From Methylorubrum extorquens (GTDB lineage Bacteria > Pseudomonadota > Alphaproteobacteria > Rhizobiales > Beijerinckiaceae), in the NCBI GenBank assembly GCA_900234795.1, contig LT962688.1, positions 2,430,001-2,462,000 of the forward strand: a stretch of DNA of 32,000 bases, written 5' to 3'. Of the stretch, positions 6,531 to 31,383 are shown in pieces (positions within the stretch are counted from its first letter, which is position 1; every line of letters starts with the position of its first letter). The notes beneath the pieces are model-generated. The model did not search any database. It saw only the letters and a program-made list of their open reading frames with translations, and was not told the DNA's origin. The translations under genes were made by a program, and so were the position numbers.

Positions 6531-8350
6531 TCACGCCTTCATGCGGACATAGGTGCCCGGTGCCGGCGCCAGGGAAGGCAGCGCCCCCGTTCCGGGAATG
6601 CGGGCGGGCACGCGCTCGGGCGCCTGCTCTTCGAGCCACTTGTACCAGTAGGGCCACCACGAGCCTTGATGCTCCGTCGCCGTCGCGACCCAATCCTCGA
6701 ACCGGCCTCGGGCCGGGCCGCCGGTGCGAAAGCCGTATTTGGCCTTGGGGCCCGGCGGGGCGACGACGCCGGCGATGTGGCCCGAGCCCGCCAGCACGTA
6801 ATCGACCTTGCCGCCGAACTTGGCCGACCCTTCGAAGACCGAGAGCGCCGGGGCGATGTGGTCCTCGCGGGTGGCGAGGTTGAAGACCGGCACCTTCACC
6901 TTCTTGAGGTCGAGGCGCACGTTGCCGAGCACCATCTGCCCCTTGGCGAGCGTGTTGTTGAGGTAGCAGTTGCGCAGGTAGAACGAGTGGTTGGCCGCGG
7001 GCATCCGCGTGGCGTCCGCGTTCCAGTAGAGCAGGTCGAAGGCGGCCGGCGCTTTGCCGCGCACGTAGTTGTTGACGACGTAGGACCAGATCAGGTCGTT
7101 GGGCCTGAGCATGTTGAAGGCGTTGGCCATGCGCGCGCCCTCCAAGTAGCCGTGCTCGGCCATCCGCTCCTCGATCGCCTTGATCTGCCCCTCGTCGGCG
7201 AAGACCTTGAGATCACCCGCATGGGTGAAATCGACTTGCGTGGTGAGGAAGGTCGCGCTCTTGATGCGCCGGTTGCCGGTCGCCGCCTGGTAGGCCAGTG
7301 TGACGGCGAGCAGCGTGCCGCCGACGCAGTAGCCCGCCGCCGCGACATCGGTCTCGCCGGTCGCCACGCCGATCATGTCGATGGCGGTCTCGATGCCTTC
7401 CCGCATGTAGGACTCGAAGTCCTTGTCGCGGTGGCGCTCATCTGGGTTCACCCAGGAGATCACGAACACCGTGATCCCCCTGAGACACCATCCAGCCGAT
7501 GAGGCTCTTCTGCGGGTTGAGATCGAGGATGTAGAACTTGTTGATCCAGGGCGGCACGATCAGCAGCGGACGCTTCAGCACCGTCTCGGTCGTGGGCGCG
7601 TACTGGATCAACTCCATTAGATCGTTGCGGAAGATGACCTCGCCGGGCGTCACCGCCACGTCCTTGCCGAAGGTGAAGGCGGACAGGTCCGTCTGCCGCA
7701 CCCGGAGCTGACCGCCGCCGGCTTCCAGATCCTCCTGCAGCATCTTCATGCCGCGCATCAGGTTGGCGCCCCCCTCCTCAAGTGTCTGGCGCAGGAGCTC
7801 GGGGTTCGTCATCACGAAGTTCGAGGGCGAGTAGGCCGAGAGGAGCTGGCGCAGGTAGAACTCCGCCTTGTGGCGGGTGTGCTCATCGATGCCTTCGGCC
7901 GTCTCGACCATCTCCTCGGCCCAGCGGCCAAGGAGCAGGTAGCTCTGCTTGATCAGGTCGAAGACCGGGTTCGCGCTCCAATCGGCATGGGCGAAGCGCT
8001 TGTCCGTGGGCGGGGGCTGGACGACCGGCTCGGTGACGGCCCCCCTGCATCCGGGTCAGGGTCGAGGCCCAGAGCGCGGCGAAGGACTGGCCGAGCTTGG
8101 TTTGGGCCTGAAGCGCCTTCTCGGGATCCTTCAGCCATGTCTCCGCGACCCGCGTGAGGGTGCGGGTCATCTCGTCGATCTCGCTGGCGCCCTGGAGGTT
8201 CGCGCCTGGGAGCAGGGCTCCCTGACCCGCCGGCTCGAACGGCTTCAGCGAGGCGGCGGCCGATTGCCGGAACACCTCCGCGAGCTGATTCGCGTTGCGC
8301 GCGATGGTCTCGAAATCCGGCGCTCCCGGGTTCGTCCGCTCGGTGCCCAC
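6531..8350 (-). pseudogene. phaC: Class I poly(3-hydroxyalkanoate) synthase PhaC, interrupted as sequenced by two +1 frameshifts that are probably sequencing artefacts
   Basis: Three consecutive minus-strand ORFs (7883..8419, 7438..7911, 6531..7469) together give a PhaC. It has the lipase-box [18 protein letters not shown], and the C-terminus SGHIAGVV...WWPYWYKWL. The frame changes at the plus-strand C6 run 8040-8045 (repaired: ...[32 protein letters not shown]...) and at the C5 run 7476-7480 (repaired: ...[22 protein letters not shown]...). The likely start is GTG 8350..8348, preceded by GGGAGGA. Length check: 1820 nt minus 2 = 606 codons. Confidence 0.9.
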
Positions 8351-8477
8351 GCGACACGTCCTCCCAAAGGTCCGCCCGCATCCCGCCCCGTGGGGCGGCC
8401 CGAGCCTCGTTTCCGACAAATTAACGCTCCACCCAGCAGAAGTCGCCCTTCCCAGACTCCATTTTCAGACCGTTGTC

Positions 8478-8843
8478 ATGAACGTGCGCCGCACCGTCCG
8501 CGCCATCGCCATCGCCTTGCCGGTTTTCGCCGCCGCGGCGTCGACCGGCGGCTGCTCCGGCGACGTGAATCCGCTGAAGGCGGCGATGGTCGGTGCGGGC
8601 TCCGGCATCAAGCCGGTGGAGGCGCCCGATTTCGTGGCGCAATCCCGCAAGAGCGATGCGAGCTACATGCCGGTGGGCGAATCAGCGCCTCGGCGGGCCG
8701 TCCGCGCCCGCAATTCGGCCGGACAGAGCGCCCTGCAGGCCGAGTTGGAAGGCGCGCGCAACCGCAACGAGTCCAAAGGGCGCGCAGCGGAAGGGGCGGC
8801 CAAGAATGCCGCGCAGGGGCTCGCCCCCAACCCGGTGGAGTGA
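8478..8843 (+). CDS. Probable lipoprotein, function unknown
   Basis: ATG 8478 gives MNVRRTVRAIAIALPVFAAAASTGGCSGD..., a signal peptide ending in a lipobox-like TGGC. The rest is Ala/Gly/Arg-rich (121 aa). The upstream part of ORF 8295..8843 looks non-coding. Confidence 0.55.
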   Translation: MNVRRTVRAIAIALPVFAAAASTGGCSGDVNPLKAAMVGAGSGIKPVEAPDFVAQSRKSDASYMPVGESAPRRAVRARNSAGQSALQAELEGARNRNESKGRAAEGAAKNAAQGLAPNPVE

Positions 8844-20864: not shown

Positions 20865-22592
20865 TCAGCCGTCCTGAAGTGCTGCCGACGCGTCGGCACC
20901 GATCAGGCGCGCCCGGAGCGGCTGGGCGCGCCCCGTCAGCGTCAGCTCCTGAAGCGCGCCGGGGGAGATGCCGGCGGCCTCGTAGACGGCCTCCGAGACG
21001 ATCGCGACCTGCCGCATCGGCCCGGTCAGCCCCTCGAGCCGGGCGGCGACGTTGACGGTGTCGCCGAGCACCGTGAAGCGGGATTCGGTCTCGTCGCCGA
21101 ACTCGCCGACGATGGCCATGCCCGCATGCAGGCCGACGCCGTAGCGCAGGCGCTCGCCGAGATCGGCGGCGAGCATGCGGTTGAGCTGCTCCACATGGCG
21201 CGCGATGCCATCGACCGCCTTGAGGGCGTCGCGGGCCGCGTGCTTGGGATCGCGATCAAGGCCGAAGATCGCCATCAGCCCGTCGCCGAGATGCTGGTTC
21301 ACGGTTCCGCCCGACTCGCGCACCGCCCGGCCGACCGCGCCGAGGAAGCGGCCGATGACGAAGACGGTGTCGTAGGGCAGGTGTTCCTCCGCGAACCGGG
21401 TCGAGCCGCGCAAGTCGGCGAACAGCACGACGACGAACCGCTCCTCGCCGGTCGCGGCCCGCTCCGGATCGCGCATGGAGGCGGCGCGGGCCTGCGGCGT
21501 GAACAGCGGCGCGACGGTGAGGTCGCCGTCGGGCCGGAGCTGGCAGGCGAGCCTTATGCCGGGGCTCGCGCCGATGCGGTCGAGGACGAGACGCTCGGCC
21601 CGTTCCGGCTCCGGCAGGAGGCGGCTGCGTTCCGTATCGACGACCCGGATGCGGCAGGTCGAGCAGCGCCCGCGCCCGCCGCACACGCTCGCATGCGGGA
21701 TGCGGCCGCGCCGGCTCGCTTCCAGCACGCTGCTCCCCCGCGGCATGCGGACGGTGCGCCCGTCGGGATAGCCGATGCGCACGAAGCCGCCCCGCGTCTC
21801 GGCAAGGGTGCGGGCGCCGCGCGCGAGCAGGACGAGGGAGAGCAACGCCATGTATGCCAGGAACAGCCCGCGCCGGATCGCGCCCAGCCGTTCGGTCTGC
21901 TCGGCCAGTCCGAGATGGTTCGGCCCGAGCTCCTGTGTCCGCCACGCCGGATCGGCGGCGAGCGCCGCGACGCTGCGCCCGCCCTGCACCACGCCGAGGA
22001 GGGCCAGCACCGGCACCAGCACCGCGCCCGCGAGCAGCCAGGGCGCGGCGCGGGCAAAGCCGCGCTTGAGCCGGAGCCAAAAATAGAGGCCGAAGCAGCC
22101 GTGCAGCCACGCGACGACCAGACCCGCCGCCAGCATCAGGCCGTGGCCCGGCGCGGCGACCCAGGCGGCGTAGAGAACCTGGGCATAGCCCCGGTCGAGT
22201 TCTTCGACGCTCCAGGCCAGACGCGTGCCGACGACGTGACTGAGAAGGAGCAGGGGGACGAAGAGGCCGAGCAGGAGCTGCGCGGTCTCGGCGGGCCGCA
22301 CCCGGTAGAAGCGCCGCTCGTAAAAAGCCTGGAGCCCGAGGGCGAGGTGAACGAGAAGCGCGCCGTAGAGGACCACGAGTGCCGGCGGCGTGCGCCAGAG
22401 CGCGACCTTCACCGCAAGCCCGGTCTCCAGCGCATCGAGCGAGATGTTGCCCAGCGCGTGGCAGAGCAGGTGCGTGAGCACGTAGGCGAACAGCACGAGG
22501 CCGCTGCCGAGACGAAGCTGACGTAAGGTGGGCCGGGCGGGCCAGCGCAAGCCGAGGGTGCGGCCGAAGCCCGGACGCGCCGCCTGCCCCAC
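20865..22592 (-). CDS. Multi-domain class III adenylate/guanylate cyclase: about six N-terminal TM helices rich in His, a 2Fe-2S ferredoxin-like domain and a cyclase catalytic domain
   Basis: The cyclase core has FVVVLFADLRGSTRF, HLGDGLMAIFG and LGDTVNVAARLE. The ferredoxin-like Cys cluster is SVCGGRGRCSTCRIRV...LACQL. The N-terminal hydrophobic helices carry His (LTHLLCHALG, LLVHLALG, LLLSHVVG, AWLHGCFG). My preferred start is GTG 22592..22590, which follows GAAGGAG by 8 nt. The ORF is open up to ATG 22763, but that extension is low-complexity and would overlap the divergent promoter. Confidence 0.8.
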   Translation of the reverse strand: MGQAARPGFGRTLGLRWPARPTLRQLRLGSGLVLFAYVLTHLLCHALGNISLDALETGLAVKVALWRTPPALVVLYGALLVHLALGLQAFYERRFYRVRPAETAQLLLGLFVPLLLLSHVVGTRLAWSVEELDRGYAQVLYAAWVAAPGHGLMLAAGLVVAWLHGCFGLYFWLRLKRGFARAAPWLLAGAVLVPVLALLGVVQGGRSVAALAADPAWRTQELGPNHLGLAEQTERLGAIRRGLFLAYMALLSLVLLARGARTLAETRGGFVRIGYPDGRTVRMPRGSSVLEASRRGRIPHASVCGGRGRCSTCRIRVVDTERSRLLPEPERAERLVLDRIGASPGIRLACQLRPDGDLTVAPLFTPQARAASMRDPERAATGEERFVVVLFADLRGSTRFAEEHLPYDTVFVIGRFLGAVGRAVRESGGTVNQHLGDGLMAIFGLDRDPKHAARDALKAVDGIARHVEQLNRMLAADLGERLRYGVGLHAGMAIVGEFGDETESRFTVLGDTVNVAARLEGLTGPMRQVAIVSEAVYEAAGISPGALQELTLTGRAQPLRARLIGADASAALQDG

Positions 22593-22691
22593 CGCCCCCG
22601 CTCCTTCTTCGAAAACCGCTTCAGTCTTCCATAGCGCGCGGCGGCGCTCCGACGAAACCGTCCGCCGCGCGGGAAAAATTCGTGCGTCCCA

Positions 22692-22718
22692 TGTCACGGC
22701 GCCGCCTTCCGCCTCGTC
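22692..22718 (+). promoter_or_regulatory. Candidate ECF41-dependent promoter upstream of the cupin-CMD-sigma operon
   Basis: TGTCACG (22692-22698), an exactly 16-nt spacer, then CGTC (22715-22718). The element lies 68 nt upstream of the cupin ATG. As I recall, the target motif reported for group ECF41 sigma factors is TGTCACA-N16-CGTC, so 10 of 11 specified positions match. Confidence 0.55.
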
Positions 22719-22786
22719 ATGGGGGCAGGACGATGGAACGGGCCGGCTTGCCGCCCTCCCCATCGCCGCTTCGATGGAGAGGGACG

Positions 22787-23221
22787 ATGATCCGATCGTG
22801 TCTGCGTGTCGCCGCGTTCGCGGCGCTGCTGACGAGCGCTGCCGCCCACGAGATGAAGGGGAGAGAGGCCGCCGGGACAGGCGGGGACGCCACGGCCGCC
22901 CTCGTCTTCGACCATGCCCTGCCCAACGTGCCGGGCAAGAGCCTGCGCGCCGTGCTCGTCACCTACGGGCCGGGCGGTGCCTCGACCGCGCATACGCATG
23001 CCAGGAGCGCCTTCATCACCGCGACGGTTCTGGAAGGGGCGATCCGCAGCCGGGTGAACGACGGGCCCGAGCGGGTCTACCGGGCCGGTGAGAGCTTCAC
23101 GGAGATGCCCGGCGATCGCCACCCTGTCAGCGCCAACGCGAGCGCCACCGAGCCGGCCCGCCTGCTCGCCGTCTTCGTCCTCGACAGCGACGAGACCCGC
23201 CTGACCACGCCGATCCGCTGA
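22787..23221 (+). CDS. Cupin-domain protein with N-terminal signal peptide
   Basis: ATG 22787 is preceded by GGAGAGGGA. The signal-like start is MIRSCLRVAAFAALLTSAAAHE. The cupin core is GPGGASTAHTHARSAFITATVLEGAI...GESFTEMPGDRHPVSANAS. Confidence 0.7.
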   Translation: MIRSCLRVAAFAALLTSAAAHEMKGREAAGTGGDATAALVFDHALPNVPGKSLRAVLVTYGPGGASTAHTHARSAFITATVLEGAIRSRVNDGPERVYRAGESFTEMPGDRHPVSANASATEPARLLAVFVLDSDETRLTTPIR

Positions 23222-23254
23222 ATCTCACTCTCTGCAACGAAAAGGACGAAGCCC

Positions 23255-23719
23255 ATGACACCGCGTGTCGAAAACCCCTACGATCACGCACCCGCCGCCA
23301 TCAAGGCGATGCTCGCGGTGGAGACGAGCTTGCGGACCGGTGGCCTCGAGCGGAGCCTGATCGATCTCGTGAAGCTGCGCGCCTCGCAGATCAACGGCTG
23401 CGCCTACTGCATCGGCCTGCACACCACCGAGGCCCGCCGGCATGGCGAGAGCGAGATGCGGATCGTTCTGCTCAACGCGTGGCGAGAGGCCGCCCTCTAC
23501 AGCCCGCGCGAGCGCGCCGCTTTGGCCTGGACCGAGGCGCTGACCCGCCTATCCGAGGCGGGTGCGCCCGACGCGCTCTATGCCGACCTGCGGACGTCCT
23601 TCACGGAGGCCGAACAGGTGCAGCTCACGCTCCAGATCGGCGCGATCAACCTGTGGAACCGGTTGCAGGTCGGCCTGCGCGGCGTCCACCATCCCGACCC
23701 GTCCCGTGATGCGGCCTGA
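23255..23719 (+). CDS. Carboxymuconolactone decarboxylase family / AhpD-like alkylhydroperoxidase-core protein
   Basis: 154 aa with LRASQINGCAYCIGLH (the CxxC of the AhpD-like core) and the WNR motif region. This is the typical partner gene of ECF41 sigma factors. Confidence 0.8.
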   Translation: MTPRVENPYDHAPAAIKAMLAVETSLRTGGLERSLIDLVKLRASQINGCAYCIGLHTTEARRHGESEMRIVLLNAWREAALYSPRERAALAWTEALTRLSEAGAPDALYADLRTSFTEAEQVQLTLQIGAINLWNRLQVGLRGVHHPDPSRDAA

Positions 23720-24590
23720 GGCGTTCGATCCGTTCGAGGCAGAGCGGGCGCGGCTGACCCGCCTCGCCTACCGGATGCTCGGTTCCTTCGCCGAAGCGGA
23801 GGATGTGGTTCAGAGCGCGTGGCTGCGCTGGCAGGCGGCGGACCGCGCCGCCGTCGCGGTGCCGGGTGCTTTCCTGTCGCGCATTGTCACCCGGCTCTGC
23901 CTCGACACGATGAAATCGGCCCGCGCCCGCCGGGAGGTCTATGTCGGGCCTTGGCTGCCGGAACCCTCCCTCGACACGGAAGAGACGATCGACGGCGACG
24001 ACCTCACCCTCACGCTGATGATGGCGCTGGAGCGTCTCTCGGCCCTGGAACGGGCGGCTTTCCTCCTGCACGACGTGTTCGGCGTGCCCCTCGACGAGGT
24101 GGCGGCGACGCTGGGGCGGGCGGCTCCGGCGGTGCGCCAGCTCGCCGTGCGGGCCCGCCAGCATGTCCGCGCCGAGCGCCCGCGCTACCCCCTGCCGCCC
24201 GAGGAGGGCGAGCGGATCGCGCGCGCCTTCTTCGACGCCTCGCGCAGCGGCGACGTCGCCGCCCTGCGCGGCCTGCTCTCGCAGACCGTGACGATGCGGG
24301 CGGATGGTGGTGGCAAGGTCGTCGCCTTCCTCAACCCGATTCGCGGAATCGATCGCGTCCTGCGGCTGTTCTCGGGGCTCGCCCGCAAACATTCCGGGTC
24401 GCCTGCTACCCTCCTCCGCGCCGTGCGGGTGGATGGCCTGCCGGGCTTCGTCAGCCTGGAACGCGGCGGCGTTCTCCAAGTGACGGCATTGGAAATCCGC
24501 GACGGGCGGATCGCAGGCATCTACATCACCCGCAACCCGGACAAGCTGCGCCGGGTGGCAGAGGCCGTGGCGATGCCGGCCGCGCGCTGA
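23709..24590 (+). CDS. sigJ: ECF sigma factor, group ECF41 (SigJ-like) with fused C-terminal SnoaL-like regulatory domain
   Basis: ATG 23709 (or GTG 23706) overlaps the CMD gene stop at 23717-23719. Region 2 reads LTRLAYRMLGSFAEAEDVVQSAWLRW, the signature YVGPWLPEP is present, region 4 reads ALERAAFLLHDVFGVPLDEVAATLGRAAPAVRQLAVRARQHV, and an extension of about 100 aa follows (FVSLERGGVLQVTALEIRDGRIAGIYITRNPDKL). No anti-sigma gene is adjacent. Confidence 0.85.
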   Translation: MRPEAFDPFEAERARLTRLAYRMLGSFAEAEDVVQSAWLRWQAADRAAVAVPGAFLSRIVTRLCLDTMKSARARREVYVGPWLPEPSLDTEETIDGDDLTLTLMMALERLSALERAAFLLHDVFGVPLDEVAATLGRAAPAVRQLAVRARQHVRAERPRYPLPPEEGERIARAFFDASRSGDVAALRGLLSQTVTMRADGGGKVVAFLNPIRGIDRVLRLFSGLARKHSGSPATLLRAVRVDGLPGFVSLERGGVLQVTALEIRDGRIAGIYITRNPDKLRRVAEAVAMPAAR

Positions 24591-24599
24591 GCGCAGCCC

Positions 24600-25106
24600 T
24601 TACAGCGGAGCGGCCAGCACCTCTTCCAGGGTGACGAGGCGCCCGGCTTCCTCGAAGCGGCGCAGCAGCGCCGATTGGCGAAAGCGCGGATCTCCGGTTA
24701 CCTCGAGGCCGAGCCAGGCCGGGCGCTCGAAGGCCTGGGCCTCGTGCTCCAGCTCCACCTCGGCCAGGATCATCCCGGCCAGCGTCCCACCGTAGACATC
24801 GATCTCCCAGACGAGCCCGGCATGCGGCACGCAGTGGCGGGTCTTCTCGATGAAACAGGTGTCGCAGACGAGGCGCATCATCGCTTCCGCGTCCGCCCGC
24901 GGAATCTCGTACTCGAATTCCGGCCGGCCGAGGCCGATGCGCGCGCCCTTGATGGTGAGCCAGGCCCGGTCCTCGTCGAGCCGAACCCGCACCTTGCCGG
25001 TGTCGAACTGCCCGATCAGCCCGTCGGTGAGCCGGTGCCGGCGGACGACGCCCGCCTTCCAGCCGTCATCGGCCACGAGAAATTTCCGCTCGACCTCGAA
25101 ACGCAT
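24600..25106 (-). CDS. Stand-alone CYTH-domain protein (triphosphate tunnel metalloenzyme; CyaB/ThTPase superfamily)
   Basis: MRFEVERKFLV carries the ExExK signature. The sequence then runs ...VRVRLDEDRAWLTIKG...EFEYEIP...WEIDVYGG...LAEVEL. GTG 25112 is an alternative start. Confidence 0.8.
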   Translation of the reverse strand: MRFEVERKFLVADDGWKAGVVRRHRLTDGLIGQFDTGKVRVRLDEDRAWLTIKGARIGLGRPEFEYEIPRADAEAMMRLVCDTCFIEKTRHCVPHAGLVWEIDVYGGTLAGMILAEVELEHEAQAFERPAWLGLEVTGDPRFRQSALLRRFEEAGRLVTLEEVLAAPL

Positions 25107-25228
25107 CGGCACAAAAGGACCCTGGCGGCGGGATTATTCCCGCCCCCTTCAGCCGCTCCGCCTTACGGTACTCACAGGTTGCGCGCCATCGTCTCCCGCG
25201 CAACGCCCTCTCGCGGGTCGGGATAACC

Positions 25229-26767
25229 TCAACGCCAGAACGGCTTGGTGTCGACGAGATCCTCGTGCGCCTCGGCCGCCGCCTCCAGAAGCTTGCGGCT
25301 GCGCGCCTCGATATCGGCTGCCGTCATCCCGGCGGCGAACAGGGTCGTCGCGCCGGCCGGCTCGACCGTCAGGTCCCGCATCAGTTCGTGGCCGGTGGCG
25401 ATGTCGTTGAGCGCGCCGAGATGGTCCTGCAGGTCCGAGAGGGCCTTGCCGAAGGCGCCGTGGCGCTTGCCCGCCTTCTTGCCGGGGAACAGGGGCGCGA
25501 AGAATTCCGCGCCGTAGCGCAGCTTCTTGGCGGCGATGCGCACCCGGTGGCGCTCCTCGGGGTCGAGGTCGTCGAGATGGCGCCCGCGCCGCTTCACCTG
25601 CCGCCGCCGCCGGTCGAGTTCGCGGGCGGCGAAGACGCGGGCCGGCTCCTCGCGCAGGGAGACGCGGCCGGGGCTGTCGTCCCGCAGCCAGGGGCCGGCA
25701 TTGATCCAGCCGATGAGGTCGAGCAGCAGCATCCGCCACGCATCGGAGCGCAGCAGCGCGGCGAGGTCGCGATAGGCCTTCGCGCGCTCGTCTTCGAGCT
25801 GCCGCTCGAGGCCGAGCAGGCCGACCTCGTCGGGATGCCGCTCGCGCTCGGCCGGCAGGATGGTGGCGAGGAAGACATCGAGGTTGCGCGCCCGGCCCAG
25901 CGGCTCGGTCGCCGCCTTCAGCTCCGCGCGGATGCGAACGCCGAGCGGATCGTCCACGAGGTCGCCGAACAGCGAGAAGGCCGAGCGCAGGCGCCGGATC
26001 GCGACGCGCATCTGGTGCAGCGCATCGGCGTCGCGGCTCTTGAGCAGGATGTCCTCGTTGATGCGCATGTGGCGCAGGCAGGCATGGGCGACGGCGCGGA
26101 ACGCCTCCGCCGCGCTCATGTCGTCGTGCAGCGGCACCGGCTCCGACTTGCGCACCCGGTCGATCTTGCCGGCGGCCAGGGCGTAGCCGCGCTCGGCCTT
26201 GCTGCGCACGCCGAGCCGCACGGGCACGAGGGCGGCGATGGCGTAGGCGAGCGCGAACACGTCGCTCGCGGTCCCCTCCTTCAGTTCGAGCTCGATCTCG
26301 CAGATCGACAGGATGTCGTCGCCGGCGGCCGGCGCCTCGATCCGGCCGAGATCGAGGGCGACCTCGATGCGGGACTCGCCCTGCTCGACGAGGTAGGTCC
26401 GCCGGGTGACCCGGGTGGTGAAGAGCGGCTCCAGCGCGGCATCGTCCGCGACGCGGCGCGCGAAGGGCGTGTCGGCGAGCGCGGCCCGGTCCGGCTCGGC
26501 GCCCTCGACCGGCTGCTCCCATTCCGGCCGATCGAACAGGCCATCGCCCTCGGCCTTGAGGGTCTGGACGAAGCGCCCTTCGCTCTCGCGCACCCGCAGG
26601 CCGAGCCCGGCCGCGTGCAGCTGCCGGTCCGGCGTGTCGAAATAGACGGAGGCGAGCTCGGCTTCCCCCTGTACCGCCGCCTCCCGCAGGAGCGGATGAT
26701 CCTGCAGGACGGCGAGGTCGGAGGGCTCGCATTCCAGCTTCAGCTCGATCTCGCGCGGGTCGCTCAT
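25229..26767 (-). CDS. CYTH + CHAD two-domain protein (YgiF-like inorganic triphosphatase architecture)
   Basis: ATG 26767 gives MSDPREIELKLEC (ExExK) ...LRVRESEGRFVQTLKAEG...ICEIELELKEG, the CYTH part. The CHAD part follows with conserved His/Arg helices: ALHQMRVAIRRLRSAFSLF, RHRVRIAAKKLRYGAEFF, LQDHLGALND. The 26 codons upstream in ORF 25229..26845 look non-coding. Confidence 0.8.
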   Translation of the reverse strand: MSDPREIELKLECEPSDLAVLQDHPLLREAAVQGEAELASVYFDTPDRQLHAAGLGLRVRESEGRFVQTLKAEGDGLFDRPEWEQPVEGAEPDRAALADTPFARRVADDAALEPLFTTRVTRRTYLVEQGESRIEVALDLGRIEAPAAGDDILSICEIELELKEGTASDVFALAYAIAALVPVRLGVRSKAERGYALAAGKIDRVRKSEPVPLHDDMSAAEAFRAVAHACLRHMRINEDILLKSRDADALHQMRVAIRRLRSAFSLFGDLVDDPLGVRIRAELKAATEPLGRARNLDVFLATILPAERERHPDEVGLLGLERQLEDERAKAYRDLAALLRSDAWRMLLLDLIGWINAGPWLRDDSPGRVSLREEPARVFAARELDRRRRQVKRRGRHLDDLDPEERHRVRIAAKKLRYGAEFFAPLFPGKKAGKRHGAFGKALSDLQDHLGALNDIATGHELMRDLTVEPAGATTLFAAGMTAADIEARSRKLLEAAAEAHEDLVDTKPFWR

Positions 26768-26866
26768 GCGGTTTCGTCCTGCTCCTCGTGAGGGTTGTGG
26801 CGGATGTGAGCCTACATCCTGCCGCATCGTCCGGGACAGGCACAACGCGGCTGAACCCGTGATGGA

Positions 26867-28201
26867 TCACGCATCCGCGTGACGATCCAGCGACAGAAGC
26901 GGGGATATGGTCCGAACAACCTCCGCCATCGACGGCCGCGCCCGCGGATCGGCCCCCCGGCAGGCCTGCTCCAGCGCGCGCCAATCGGCGATGCCGGCGG
27001 GTTCGGTCGCGCAATGGTCGAGCAACTCGCCGAGCAGGATACCCCAGGCGCGGGTCTCGATGCGCTGCCAGGCCGCGCCGGCCTCGCCGGGCGGCAGCAC
27101 GGAGGCGGCCCCGAAATCGCTCAGCACCGCCTCGCCCATGCCCCCATCCCACAAGGTATTGTGGCCGTAGAGGTCGCCGTGGAGCACGCCGCAGCCGTGA
27201 AGATGGGCAGTTGCCCGCGCCACGCCGGCCGCGATGCGCAGAGCCGTCTCCGGCGCCAGGGCGAAGTCCGGCGCGTAGACGTCGCGGCTGCAGCTTTCCA
27301 GGCTCGGCGATCCGGCCAGAACCCGCCAGCCCTCCGGGATCAGCGGCATCAGCAGCCCCTGCACCCCGTCCGGATGCCCCTCGATCCGCCCGAGCGCGCC
27401 GGTGAGGTGGGGATGCCGGCCGGCGGCGAGGCAGGCCGCCATCTCCTGTTCGGGCAGCCCGTCGCTGGTCATGCGGCCCTTGAACAGTTTCACCGCGACC
27501 GTCGCCTCCCCGTCCGGCCGACGCCACAAAGCCCGGTGGATCCGCCCCGAGGCGCCCTCGCCGAGACACGGGCCGAGCGCGAGCGCGTCCCAGGGCACCT
27601 GCGGCACGCGGGCCGGCGCCGGCTCGCCGTCGAGGGGATTGCCGGCCCAGGCGATCCAGGCGAGCCGCGGCAAAGCCGTCAGCCAAGCGGGCAGCGCGTC
27701 GAAGCGGTTGGCGGAGAGGCGCAGCAATTCGAGGCTTGGCGCGCCTTCGAGCGACGCGGGCAGCGCCTCCAGCCGGTTTCCCGCCAGCATCAGCTTCTGC
27801 AGGTGCGGGCGCCGGCCGAGGGCGTCCGGCAGGTGCGCGATCCGGTTGTCGGTCAGCGTGAGCCAACGCAGGGCCGGCGGCAGCGCCTCGCCCGGCACCT
27901 CCCGCAAGCCGGTGGCGCGAAACCCGACCTGACTCAGCGCCGGGCAATCCCCGAGGGCGGGCGGCAGACGCTCGAATCGGTTCCCCGAGCAGAACAAGAC
28001 GCGCAGCCGCTTGAGCCGGCCGATGTCATCCGGGAGTGCGGTGAGGCCGCAATCGCTGAGATCCAGCAGTTCCAGGGTATCGGCGAGGCCAAAAATTTCG
28101 GGCGGGAATTTTTTTAGGGTTCCGCTCAGGCGCAACTCCCGCGCTCCGGCGAGGTCGCCGCGGCGGAGGGCATGCAGCGTGGGGGGCGGTGGGGTGTTCA
28201 T
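26867..28201 (-). CDS. Leucine-rich-repeat / protein-kinase-like fusion protein (cytoplasmic)
   Basis: 444 aa with no signal peptide or TM segment. There are at least 7 tandem LRRs of about 23 aa (LELLDLSDCGLTALPDDIGRLKR, LRWLTLTDNRIAHLPDALGRRPH, LQKLMLAGNRLEALPASLEGAPS...). The kinase motifs are LGEGASGRI, VAVK, HGDLYGHN and SDFG. Confidence 0.8.
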   Translation of the reverse strand: MNTPPPPTLHALRRGDLAGARELRLSGTLKKFPPEIFGLADTLELLDLSDCGLTALPDDIGRLKRLRVLFCSGNRFERLPPALGDCPALSQVGFRATGLREVPGEALPPALRWLTLTDNRIAHLPDALGRRPHLQKLMLAGNRLEALPASLEGAPSLELLRLSANRFDALPAWLTALPRLAWIAWAGNPLDGEPAPARVPQVPWDALALGPCLGEGASGRIHRALWRRPDGEATVAVKLFKGRMTSDGLPEQEMAACLAAGRHPHLTGALGRIEGHPDGVQGLLMPLIPEGWRVLAGSPSLESCSRDVYAPDFALAPETALRIAAGVARATAHLHGCGVLHGDLYGHNTLWDGGMGEAVLSDFGAASVLPPGEAGAAWQRIETRAWGILLGELLDHCATEPAGIADWRALEQACRGADPRARPSMAEVVRTISPLLSLDRHADA

Positions 28202-28466: not shown

Positions 28467-28542
<76 letters not shown>

Positions 28543-30229: not shown

Positions 30230-31383
30230 TCACGCCTTCGCGGCGGCCTCGGCCCGCGCCCAGCCGTCCTTGGTCTCGGCCACGAAATCCGCGAGCCGCC
30301 CGGCCGCGATCGCCGCGCGCATGCCGGCCATCAGCGCCTGATAATAGGCGAGGTTGTTCCAGGTCAGCAGCATCATCCCCAGGATCTCGTCGGACCGGAC
30401 GAGGTGGTGGAGATAGGCGCGTGAATAGTCCCGCGCCGCCGGGCAGTCCGAGGCCTCGTCCAGCGGCCGCGTGTCCTCGGCGTGGCGGGCGTTGCGCAGG
30501 TTGATCCGGCCGTGCCTCGTATAGGCGAGGCCGTGGCGGCCGGCGCGGGTCGGCATCACGCAATCGAACATGTCGATGCCGCGCATCACCGACTGCATCA
30601 GGTCGTCGGGGGGTGCCGACGCCCATGAGGTAGCGCGGCTTGCCGGCCGGCAGATGCGGCTCCACCGTCTCGATCATCGCCAGCATCACCGCCTGCGGCT
30701 CGCCGACGGCAAGCCCGCCGATGGCGTAGCCCTTGAGCCCGAGATCGGTCAGCGCCCGCGCGCTCTCGACGCGTAGTTCGGGCACGTCGCCGCCCTGGAC
30801 GATGCCGAACAGTGCCTTGCCGGGCTGCTCGCCGAAGGCGACGCGGCAGCGCTCGGCCCAGCGCAGGGGAGAGGTGCATCGCCTTCTCGATCTCCGGCCG
30901 CTCGGCCGGCAGGCGCACGCATTCGTCGAGCTGCATCTGGATGTCGGAGCCGAGCAGGCCCTGGATCTCGATCGAGCGCTCCGGGCTCATCCGGTGGGCG
31001 GTGCCGTCGATATGCGAACGGAAGGTCACGCCCTCTTCGTCGATCTTTCGCAGGGCCGACAGCGACATCACCTGGAAGCCGCCGGAATCGGTAAGGATCG
31101 GCCCGTCCCAGCGCATGAAGCGGTGGAGGCCGCCGAGCCGCGCCATCCGCTCGGCGCCGGGGCGCAGCATCAAGTGGTAGGTGTTGCCGAGCACCACGTC
31201 GGCGCCCAGATCGCGCACCTGCTCCGGATACATCGCCTTCACGGTCGCGGCGGTGCCCACCGGCATGAAGGCCGGCGTGCGGATTTTTCCGCGCGGCATG
31301 GCGATGTGGCCGGTGCGGGCCTGGCCGTCGGTGGCGGAGACCGTGAAGGAGAAGTCGGTCGGGGGATCGAGCGGTTCGGTCAT
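30230..31383 (-). pseudogene. tgt: Queuine tRNA-ribosyltransferase (Tgt), interrupted as sequenced by two +1 frameshifts that are probably sequencing artefacts
   Basis: The sequence has [61 protein letters not shown] and the Zn-site region. The frame changes at the plus-strand G4 run 30866-30869 (repaired: ...[33 protein letters not shown]...) and at the G6 run 30608-30613 (repaired: ...[24 protein letters not shown]...). Length check: 1154 nt minus 2 = 384 codons. Confidence 0.9.

Follow-up and report, generated by a model that had tools for sequence, protein, structure and literature searches.

The 32,000-nucleotide stretch of Methylorubrum extorquens DNA analysed here (contig LT962688.1, positions 2,430,001 to 2,462,000; hereafter the window) encodes a 444-amino-acid (aa) protein in which leucine-rich repeats (LRRs) are fused to a kinase domain, and this protein can be assigned with near certainty to BLRK, the bacterial leucine-rich repeat kinase family. 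As read from its sequence, it is a cytoplasmic LRR-kinase fusion with a complete set of catalytic residues. With modest confidence, somewhat better than even, the protein as a whole is viewed here as a soluble, stand-alone protein kinase of the cytoplasm whose target is selected by the LRR.

The open reading frame (ORF) that an earlier note had drawn from the letters alone is real: it occupies 26867..28201 exactly, on the minus strand, and runs from ATG to stop over 444 aa plus the stop codon, while the plus-strand frame over the same interval holds no gene. With hundreds of homologues that match it over the full length, at 31-94% identity, the ORF lies well outside what chance would produce. 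Neither a transmembrane (TM) helix nor a signal peptide was found in the 444-aa protein, in agreement with the note; the highest 19-residue Kyte-Doolittle (KD) window reaches 1.0 and lies within the LRR, and the N-terminus, with a mean KD value of -0.56, is polar and proline-rich. The linker between LRR and kinase measures about 10 residues, and an AlphaFold2 (AF2) model of the full-length protein (pLDDT 92.9, pTM 0.90) suggests, by its pTM over two domains, that LRR and kinase are held in a fixed mutual orientation. In the same model the N-terminal cap is predicted to be folded (pLDDT 95 from aa 11), so that there would be no room for a disordered N-terminal secretion signal.

Membership of BLRK was judged by pairwise comparison to the members listed in 2007. 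In the survey of Kannan, Taylor, Zhai, Venter & Manning 2007 (PLoS Biol 5:e17, PMC1821047), the protein-kinase-like superfamily comprises 20 families, BLRK among them; the family's hidden Markov model (HMM; HMMER2, 279 positions, 36 seed sequences) carries the description 'Bacterial Leucine Rich Repeat Kinase', and the supplementary BLRK FASTA holds Burkholderia proteins, Shewanella oneidensis SO4016 and ocean-metagenome reads. The alignment annotation of that paper groups BLRK with the eukaryotic protein kinases (ePK) and pknB, and gives the equivalent of PKA-R280 and the proline next to it as 98% conserved; these two residues are R422-P423 in the window protein. In the accessible parts of the same work the BLRK set contains fewer than 100 members, drawn from a few proteobacteria, and no function is assigned to it (PMC1821047). 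By BLASTP, the window protein is 53% identical over 433 aa to the Burkholderia cepacia BLRK member ZP_00213921 (E 1e-138) and 45% identical over 443 aa to SO4016 (E 8e-121), and it has in common with BLRK members the motifs LRWLILTDN, LQKLMLAGN, HGDLYAHN, EVRAFG and RP. The BLRK layout, in which LRRs stand directly before an ePK-cluster kinase in a protein of about 420-470 aa, is found here as LRRs at aa 20-194 and a kinase at aa 205-437 of 444 aa. NCBI also lists, under the name 'leucine-rich repeat-containing protein kinase family protein', a Methylorubrum protein to which the window protein is 94% identical. BLRK has thus been known since 2007, is catalogued and is routinely annotated by NCBI, and the window gene is an ordinary orthologue.

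A kinase core at the C-terminus had been proposed in the earlier note from the motifs LGEGASGRI, VAVK, HGDLYGHN and SDFG, all of which are present and have been mapped to coordinates (Table 1). Two Pfam kinase models are passed by the 444-aa protein, PK_Tyr_Ser-Thr at 37.1 bits (cut-off 23.1) and Pkinase at 32.2 bits (cut-off 31.7), and both are passed by each of 23 diverse family kinase halves, with best E-values of 3e-19 and 1.3e-18, respectively. A profile of the family kinase halves, compared with solved structures, matched TYK2, FGFR1-4, CSF1R, KIT, EGFR and B-Raf at E 4e-22 to 6e-18 and aligned HGDLYAHN on the tyrosine-kinase HRDLAARN. The AF2 model of the kinase alone (pLDDT 93.1, pTM 0.89) was matched by Foldseek to FGFR, MerTK, EGFR, RIPK2 and Abl2 (TMq 0.63-0.70, E 8e-14 to 1.6e-11). 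By profile and by fold, the kinase domain as a whole is of eukaryotic type and closest to the tyrosine kinase and tyrosine-kinase-like (TK/TKL) groups. The core proposed in the note is thereby borne out by Pfam and by the predicted fold, with the Lys, Asp, Asn and DFG residues present. The note had further likened the catalytic loop to those of RIO, Kdo and APH kinases, and on that ground had left the substrate class open. The loop string does resemble them and weak matches exist, but the whole domain is TK/TKL-like, and the argument is not supported. The Kdo model scores 18.8-20.3 bits for the 444-aa protein, below its cut-off of 21.3, and weak Kdo matches recur in all 23 members (best 5e-10), with APH matches in 8 and RIO1 matches in 4, at about 1e-4; the NCBIfam model for Bud32 scores 19.7 against a cut-off of 125. 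A RIO/Bud32/Kdo/APH-type identity was rejected, as the Kdo and Bud32 scores fall below their cut-offs, APH and RIO1 are matched by some members only, and the protein-kinase models score far better.

Conservation within the kinase was assessed in 44 diverse sequences, 31-65% identical to the window protein. The glycine-rich loop, A236-x-K238, G342-D343, N348 and D362-x-G364 are invariant in this set, and R422-P423 is nearly so; the loop glycines G214, G216 and G219 are all present, and G214 is invariant down to 31% identity. Because K238, E253, D343, N348 and D362 are conserved, the kinase looks catalytically competent. The catalytic loop reads HGD[LVIF]Y[AG]HN in 40 of the 44 sequences, or 42 with S or P accepted as the sixth residue; it is without the HRD arginine, without the lysine of Ser/Thr kinases and without the arginine of Tyr kinases, and does not match the canonical HRDLKxxN or HRDLAARN/HRDLRAAN. 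Further departures lie downstream. From the DFG aspartate to the helix-F acid the family has a median of 21 residues, versus 36 in PKA, and from the helix-F glycine to the subdomain-XI arginine it has 37, versus 55 in PKA, the PKA spacings being textbook numbers. The profile alignment to FGFR1 breaks after DFG and restarts at helix H. In both AF2 models, DSSP places a predicted 24-residue helix at aa 372-395, beginning about 7 residues past DFG, with two or three helices after it; between DFG and this helix no helix was found in the models, which have neither a helix EF nor a helix G. Given the short spacings on either side of helix F and the small number of helices in the models, the activation segment, with its P+1 loop and APE motif, and helix G are missing, and, as judged from alignment and predicted structure, their deletion is family-wide. 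Also family-wide are about 11 extra residues between the beta-3 lysine and the catalytic aspartate, which include the non-helical SC[ST]RD segment.

The N-terminal half is an LRR solenoid by Pfam (LRR_8 at E 1.2e-18, plus LRR_14, LRR_4 and LRR_1). Where the earlier note had counted at least seven repeats at about 25-190, eight repeats of 22-23 aa can be counted at aa 20-194, the eighth being a partial C-terminal cap. By sequence, the solved LRRs nearest to it are those of LRRD1, the LIC proteins of Leptospira and SHOC2, and plant LRR ectodomains also score well. Among NCBIfam models, the best matches of this half are the type III effectors XopAC, XopAE, XopL, SlrP and SspH2, all of them far below cut-off and confined to the LRRs (82.6 bits against 450 for XopAC, then 60.5 against 600 and 45.3 against 500). 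In the diverse alignment of bacterial and eukaryotic sequences, entropy on the concave face averages 1.42 bits, and 1.0-1.2 bits within repeats 5-7, versus 2.45 bits for convex and loop positions; T117 and F70 on this face are near-invariant, in addition to the two invariant residues of Table 1. Since the concave face is constant from proteobacteria to fungi, it must contact something equally constant, be it the protein's own kinase domain or a partner that is universally conserved.

Such LRR-kinase fusions had been called uncommon in bacteria in the earlier note, a view that the distribution of the family contradicts. The 120 best database matches, from Methylobacterium, Methylorubrum and Roseomonas, are without exception homologous over the full length and measure 427-455 aa. 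When the kinase half was compared with 1.84 billion cluster representatives, 172 were matched at E <= 1e-30 and 713 at E <= 1e-10, and, because nearly all of these representatives measure 420-460 aa with the kinase at about 195-440, the LRR-kinase unit is conserved in its entirety. A scan for the catalytic-loop pattern, with one genome per species, returned at least 600 stretches, 599 of which are confirmed relatives. Groups and identities refer to the best 80 of these, which are 51-74% identical over their full length and come from Alphaproteobacteria (Methylobacteriaceae, Acetobacteraceae, Caulobacter), Betaproteobacteria (Variovorax, Paraburkholderia, Burkholderia, Janthinobacterium, Zoogloea, Gallionella, Sideroxydans), Gammaproteobacteria (Pseudomonas, Aeromonadaceae) and Verrucomicrobia. 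By exact-sequence look-up of divergent representatives, members were placed in an ascomycete, a basidiomycete yeast, a chytrid, two amoebozoans and a diatom, and one in a bacterium of the candidate phyla radiation (CPR). The neighbour-joining tree of bacterial and eukaryotic members is star-like and gives no direction of transfer. Only one of the aligned representatives departs clearly from the usual architecture, P0129, a 590-aa protein of a Verrucomicrobiales metagenome-assembled genome, with about 150 extra N-terminal residues before the LRR. To the NCBI standard name and the family name of 2007 may be added two listings, that of an LRR-STYK in Pseudomonas aeruginosa in 2005 and one of 2015 considered below. 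As for the note's further statement that such proteins have not been functionally characterised, full-text literature searching found no functional study of any BLRK member, only mentions at the level of catalogues, and SO_4016 was met only in a computational ranking table; the homologues thus belong to a family that is catalogued and not characterised. The passages available from the earlier papers mention neither the loss of the activation segment and helix G nor the invariant LRR concave face, and likewise neither the wider bacterial spread nor the eukaryotic members.

These observations can be joined in a model of how a BLRK protein may act. The model starts from the fold, the catalytic residues, the two deletions, the conserved LRR face and the finding of neither conserved partners nor export signals. 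It proposes that the C-terminal TK/TKL-like core binds ATP and carries out phosphotransfer in the usual manner, as K238, E253, D343, N348 and D362 would allow, and that the platform on which peptide substrates ordinarily dock (activation segment, P+1 loop, APE motif and helix G) has been removed in evolution. Because the HRD arginine is absent alongside the missing activation segment, the active site would not be switched by phosphorylation of an activation loop and is probably constitutively open. The choice of target would instead be supplied by the N-terminal eight-repeat solenoid, whose concave face (K136 and R161, with T117 and F70) may bind a conserved intracellular partner or pack on the kinase and so complete the substrate site. 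Since the LRR in this proposal supplies target choice, the likeliest substrate would be a protein held by the LRR; phosphotransfer, a protein substrate and a docking role for the LRR are what the model would predict.

Several points weigh against this model. Kinase activity is presumed from sequence for every member of the family; the loop HGDLYxHN, without the Ser/Thr-kinase lysine or the Tyr-kinase arginine, resembles the HGDLxxxN of small-molecule kinases, and the weak Kdo matches run through all members; the invariant D247, G248, R306, D307, Y345 and H347 have no assigned role; and the concave face of the LRR may be in contact with the kinase, turned towards the active site or exposed to solvent. 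The unusual loop and the missing peptide platform together leave a non-protein substrate possible. A small-molecule or lipid kinase, by which a metabolite is phosphorylated and the LRR serves regulation or localisation, is accordingly the first alternative to be weighed, and is considered unlikely. The loop is of the kind found in APH, choline-kinase, Kdo and RIO-type enzymes, families in which the activation segment and helix G are likewise missing, and the invariant polar residues D247, R306, D307, Y345 and H347 near the cleft could form a defined pocket; to these may be added the Kdo, APH and RIO1 matches given above. However, global similarity is much stronger to protein kinases (Pfam to 1e-18 and 3e-19, PDB TK/TKL entries to E 1e-22), the subdomain-XI Arg-Pro that is a hallmark of ePK and pknB is retained, and there is no metabolic operon context. 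Further, LRRs are overwhelmingly protein-binding modules, and here their concave face is conserved.

Table 1. Features of the BLRK-family gene and protein, with positions in the window
Feature	Residues (aa)	Position	Strand	Remarks
Complete ORF, BLRK-family LRR-kinase	444 aa	26867..28201	-	
N-terminal cap	1-19	28145..28201	-	helix at aa 7-13; conserved 'LxALRRGDLAGA'
LRR solenoid	20-194	27620..28144	-	eight repeats; concave face of repeats 5-7 strongly conserved
Concave-face residue	K136	27794..27796	-	invariant (LQKLMLAGN)
Concave-face residue	R161	27719..27721	-	invariant (LELLRLSAN)
Protein kinase domain	205-437	26891..27589	-	limits approximate; TK/TKL-like eukaryotic fold
Glycine-rich loop LGEGASGRI	213-221	27539..27565	-	
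Beta-3 VAVK	235-238	27488..27499	-	A236 and K238 invariant
Family-specific TSDG	245-248	27458..27469	-	after beta-3; D247 and G248 invariant
Predicted helix-C glutamate	E253	27443..27445	-	E or D across the family
Family-specific SC[ST]RD	303-307	27281..27295	-	extended segment in the place of helix D; R306 and D307 invariant
Catalytic loop HGDLYGHN	341-348	27158..27181	-	G342, D343, Y345, H347 and N348 invariant
DFG	362-364	27110..27118	-	preceded by S361
Long helix taken as helix F	372-395	27017..27088	-	E382-x-R-A-W-G387, equivalent of D220-x-W-x-x-G
Subdomain XI Arg-Pro	R422-P423	26933..26938	-	PKA R280 equivalent; ePK/pknB/BLRK hallmark

The surroundings of the gene name no partner. In the window the kinase gene lies between an upstream tRNA-Lys(UUU) (anticodon TTT; 28467..28542, minus strand, 265 nucleotides upstream of the kinase start) and, downstream on the same strand, a CYTH-CHAD gene (25229..26845, minus strand; listed with a TTG start, the true one probably lying some 26 codons further downstream) and a stand-alone CYTH gene (24600..25112, minus strand). 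The same order is found in a collinear Methylorubrum genome (locus L001). The CYTH-CHAD and CYTH genes were considered as operon partners and set aside, as the arrangement occurs only in Methylorubrum and the neighbours in Roseomonas and Methylobacterium sp. WSM2598 are unrelated. All-against-all ORF clustering of 80 loci found no neighbour conserved across genera; the one cluster that spans six genera is a short-chain dehydrogenase whose positions and orientations vary, and was rejected as coincidental. Gene order is stable within each genus. In the 265 nucleotides upstream of the start, neither a sigma-70-like site nor a convincing EcfG-type GGAAC-N16-CGTT motif was found.

Other features of the neighbourhood were observed in passing. 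The tgt gene (queuine tRNA-ribosyltransferase; 30233..31383, minus strand) is split over three frames by two frameshifts near 30867 and 30609; measured against the intact orthologue (383 aa) in a related Methylorubrum genome, the three pieces still show 96-98% identity, and the split reflects either assembly or sequencing indels or a very recent pseudogene. An extracytoplasmic function (ECF) sigma factor with a SnoaL-like C-terminal domain (23562..24590, plus strand) lies in about 2 kb (22605..24596) that are absent from L001, where the CYTH gene is directly followed by the Fer2-cyclase gene; this segment is a strain-specific insertion or deletion. In the ORF at 20865..22763 (minus strand), a 2Fe-2S ferredoxin domain is joined to the catalytic domain of an adenylate/guanylate cyclase, a pairing that is conserved beside the CYTH genes of the related Methylorubrum locus.

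A different account would make the protein a translocated effector, delivered into eukaryotic host or predator cells such as plants or amoebae, where the LRR would bind a host protein and the kinase phosphorylate it. The orthologue of M. extorquens DSM13060 figures among the eukaryote-like putative effectors of Koskimaki et al. 2015 ('host defence suppression'). Numerous carriers are associated with plants or soil (Pseudomonas, Methylobacterium, Variovorax, Paraburkholderia), and the best NCBIfam LRR matches are to type III effectors; however, as given above, these are far below cut-off and concern the LRRs only, and free-living chemolithotrophs (Gallionella, Sideroxydans), CPR bacteria and eukaryotes have members of the family too. 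The kinase, TK/TKL-like and without an activation loop, would suit an effector, and minimal effector kinases such as OspG, NleH and HopBF1 are also without one. Against delivery speak the N-terminus, which from about aa 7 onwards is taken up by a folded and conserved LRR cap and has no disordered leader, and the short, variable C-terminal tail. Across genera, the 80 loci show no conserved secretion-system gene in the vicinity of the kinase. In Pseudomonas the order is an AFG1-like ATPase, BLRK, YebC on the other strand and a short Phage_GPD/VgrG-like gene; the latter (about 491 aa) stands two genes downstream of BLRK in most Pseudomonas loci (L069, at 7272..8747 on the plus strand, and 15 others). 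It is possibly an orphan spike of a type VI secretion system (T6SS), and any link of it to the kinase is putative; being genus-specific, downstream and past an opposite-strand gene, it does not show the usual vgrG-effector arrangement. In Methylobacteriaceae, identity is 94% within the genus and about 65-75% in related genera, with a gene order particular to each genus, which looks like a resident gene rather than a mobile one. In sum, a role as effector appears rather improbable.

Less probable still, and by a good measure, is an anti-phage or innate-immune-like sensor, in which the LRR would detect a phage protein and the kinase would trigger growth arrest. The analogy with the LRR sensors of eukaryotic immunity speaks for it, as do weak PADLOC matches to mad6 (6e-12, 43 bits) and PD-T4-6 (3e-7); however, these matches span the generic kinase core only, and no PADLOC match was found in the neighbouring genes, which are housekeeping genes (tgt, tRNA-Lys and CYTH/CHAD here, AFG1 ATPase and YebC in Pseudomonas). 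GC content is flat across the locus and its profile gives no island signature, integrases and repeats not having been searched for. A single conserved architecture, an LRR face that is highly conserved and not diversifying, and the stable gene order within genera also speak against a defence role. A pseudokinase or scaffold, whose fold would bind nucleotide or protein without phosphotransfer, might be suggested by the unusual loop (no HRD arginine, and neither Lys nor Arg at the substrate-phosphate position) and the missing activation segment, and is nevertheless highly improbable, as pseudokinases typically lose at least one catalytic residue and here K238, E/D253, D343, N348, D362 and the Gly loop are invariant or nearly so down to 31% identity.

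The model of an LRR-directed protein kinase admits a bolder extension, which is doubtful at present and offered as a speculation. BLRK could be a distinct and ancient kinase design, in which the LRR solenoid replaces the activation segment and helix G and its concave face completes the substrate site, and which has been kept nearly unchanged across proteobacteria, Verrucomicrobia, CPR, three fungal phyla, amoebozoans and a diatom. Were this true, the target of BLRK would be common to bacteria and eukaryotes, and the family may be a prokaryotic relative of the TKL-type LRR kinases (LRRK/Roco, RLK/Pelle/IRAK) and not a recent import from eukaryotes. The window gene itself adds little as an observation, and its value lies in pointing to BLRK as an uncharacterised family. 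BLRK is one of the few ePK-cluster kinase families without a tested member, even though it is present in the tractable Pseudomonas, Burkholderia, Shewanella MR-1, Methylorubrum and Caulobacter. Experiments are made concrete by three features, namely the absence of activation segment and helix G throughout the family, the invariant concave face and the presence in both bacteria and eukaryotes, and the family could show how a kinase recruits its substrates without the canonical platform.

Comparison with known systems places the protein more precisely. The anti-phage kinases MADS6 and PD-T4-6 were considered and rejected, the mad6 match of 43 bits covering only the kinase core and no defence-island context being present. 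The earlier note had drawn an analogy with the sensor logic of plant receptor-like kinases (RLKs) and IRAK, which is a loose one. The plant LRR receptor kinases, Pelle and IRAK do combine LRR and kinase, the HRD arginine is absent here as in non-RD kinases, and the subdomain-XI sequence 'DPxxRPSMxEVV' is RLK/TKL-like. However, the window protein has no signal peptide or TM helix and therefore no membrane between its parts, LRR and kinase lying in one compartment; its repeats, at about 23 aa, are of the SHOC2/LRRD1/Leptospira type, and the regulatory activation loop of the RLKs is absent.

LRRK/Roco proteins or LRR-enzyme effectors are closer analogies than plant RLKs or IRAK. In LRR-enzyme effectors (the LRR-Fic protein XopAC, XopL, and the LRR-NEL proteins IpaH, SspH and SlrP), as in the window protein, an N-terminal LRR targets and a C-terminal domain catalyses; unlike them, the window protein has a kinase as its catalytic domain and neither a secretion leader nor a secretion-system linkage, and its family is found in bacteria that are not host-associated and in eukaryotes. 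OspG, NleH and HopBF1 resemble BLRK in having a kinase core stripped of the activation loop and of part of the C-lobe substrate platform, whereas BLRK keeps helices H and I with the ePK arginine, has an LRR of its own and is nearest to TK/TKL rather than RIO/Bud32-like; none of the three is among the top 50-60 PDB matches by profile or Foldseek. With LRRK/Roco proteins (LRRK2, Dictyostelium Roco) the likeness is a cytoplasmic LRR and a TKL-type kinase in one polypeptide, and Roco LRRs are of the same class as those of LRRD1, SHOC2 and the Leptospira LIC proteins. The window protein differs in having neither a Roc GTPase nor a COR domain between LRR and kinase (no Pfam matches), in being far smaller (444 aa) and in the deletion of its activation segment and helix G, and LRRK2 is absent from the top sequence and fold matches. 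The closest likeness remains BLRK as defined in 2007, from which the window protein differs in nothing essential, sharing its LRR and kinase layout, its motifs and its placement beside ePK and pknB; what has changed since is the picture of the family itself, which is now much larger, includes eukaryotic and CPR members and has dispensed with the activation segment and helix G.

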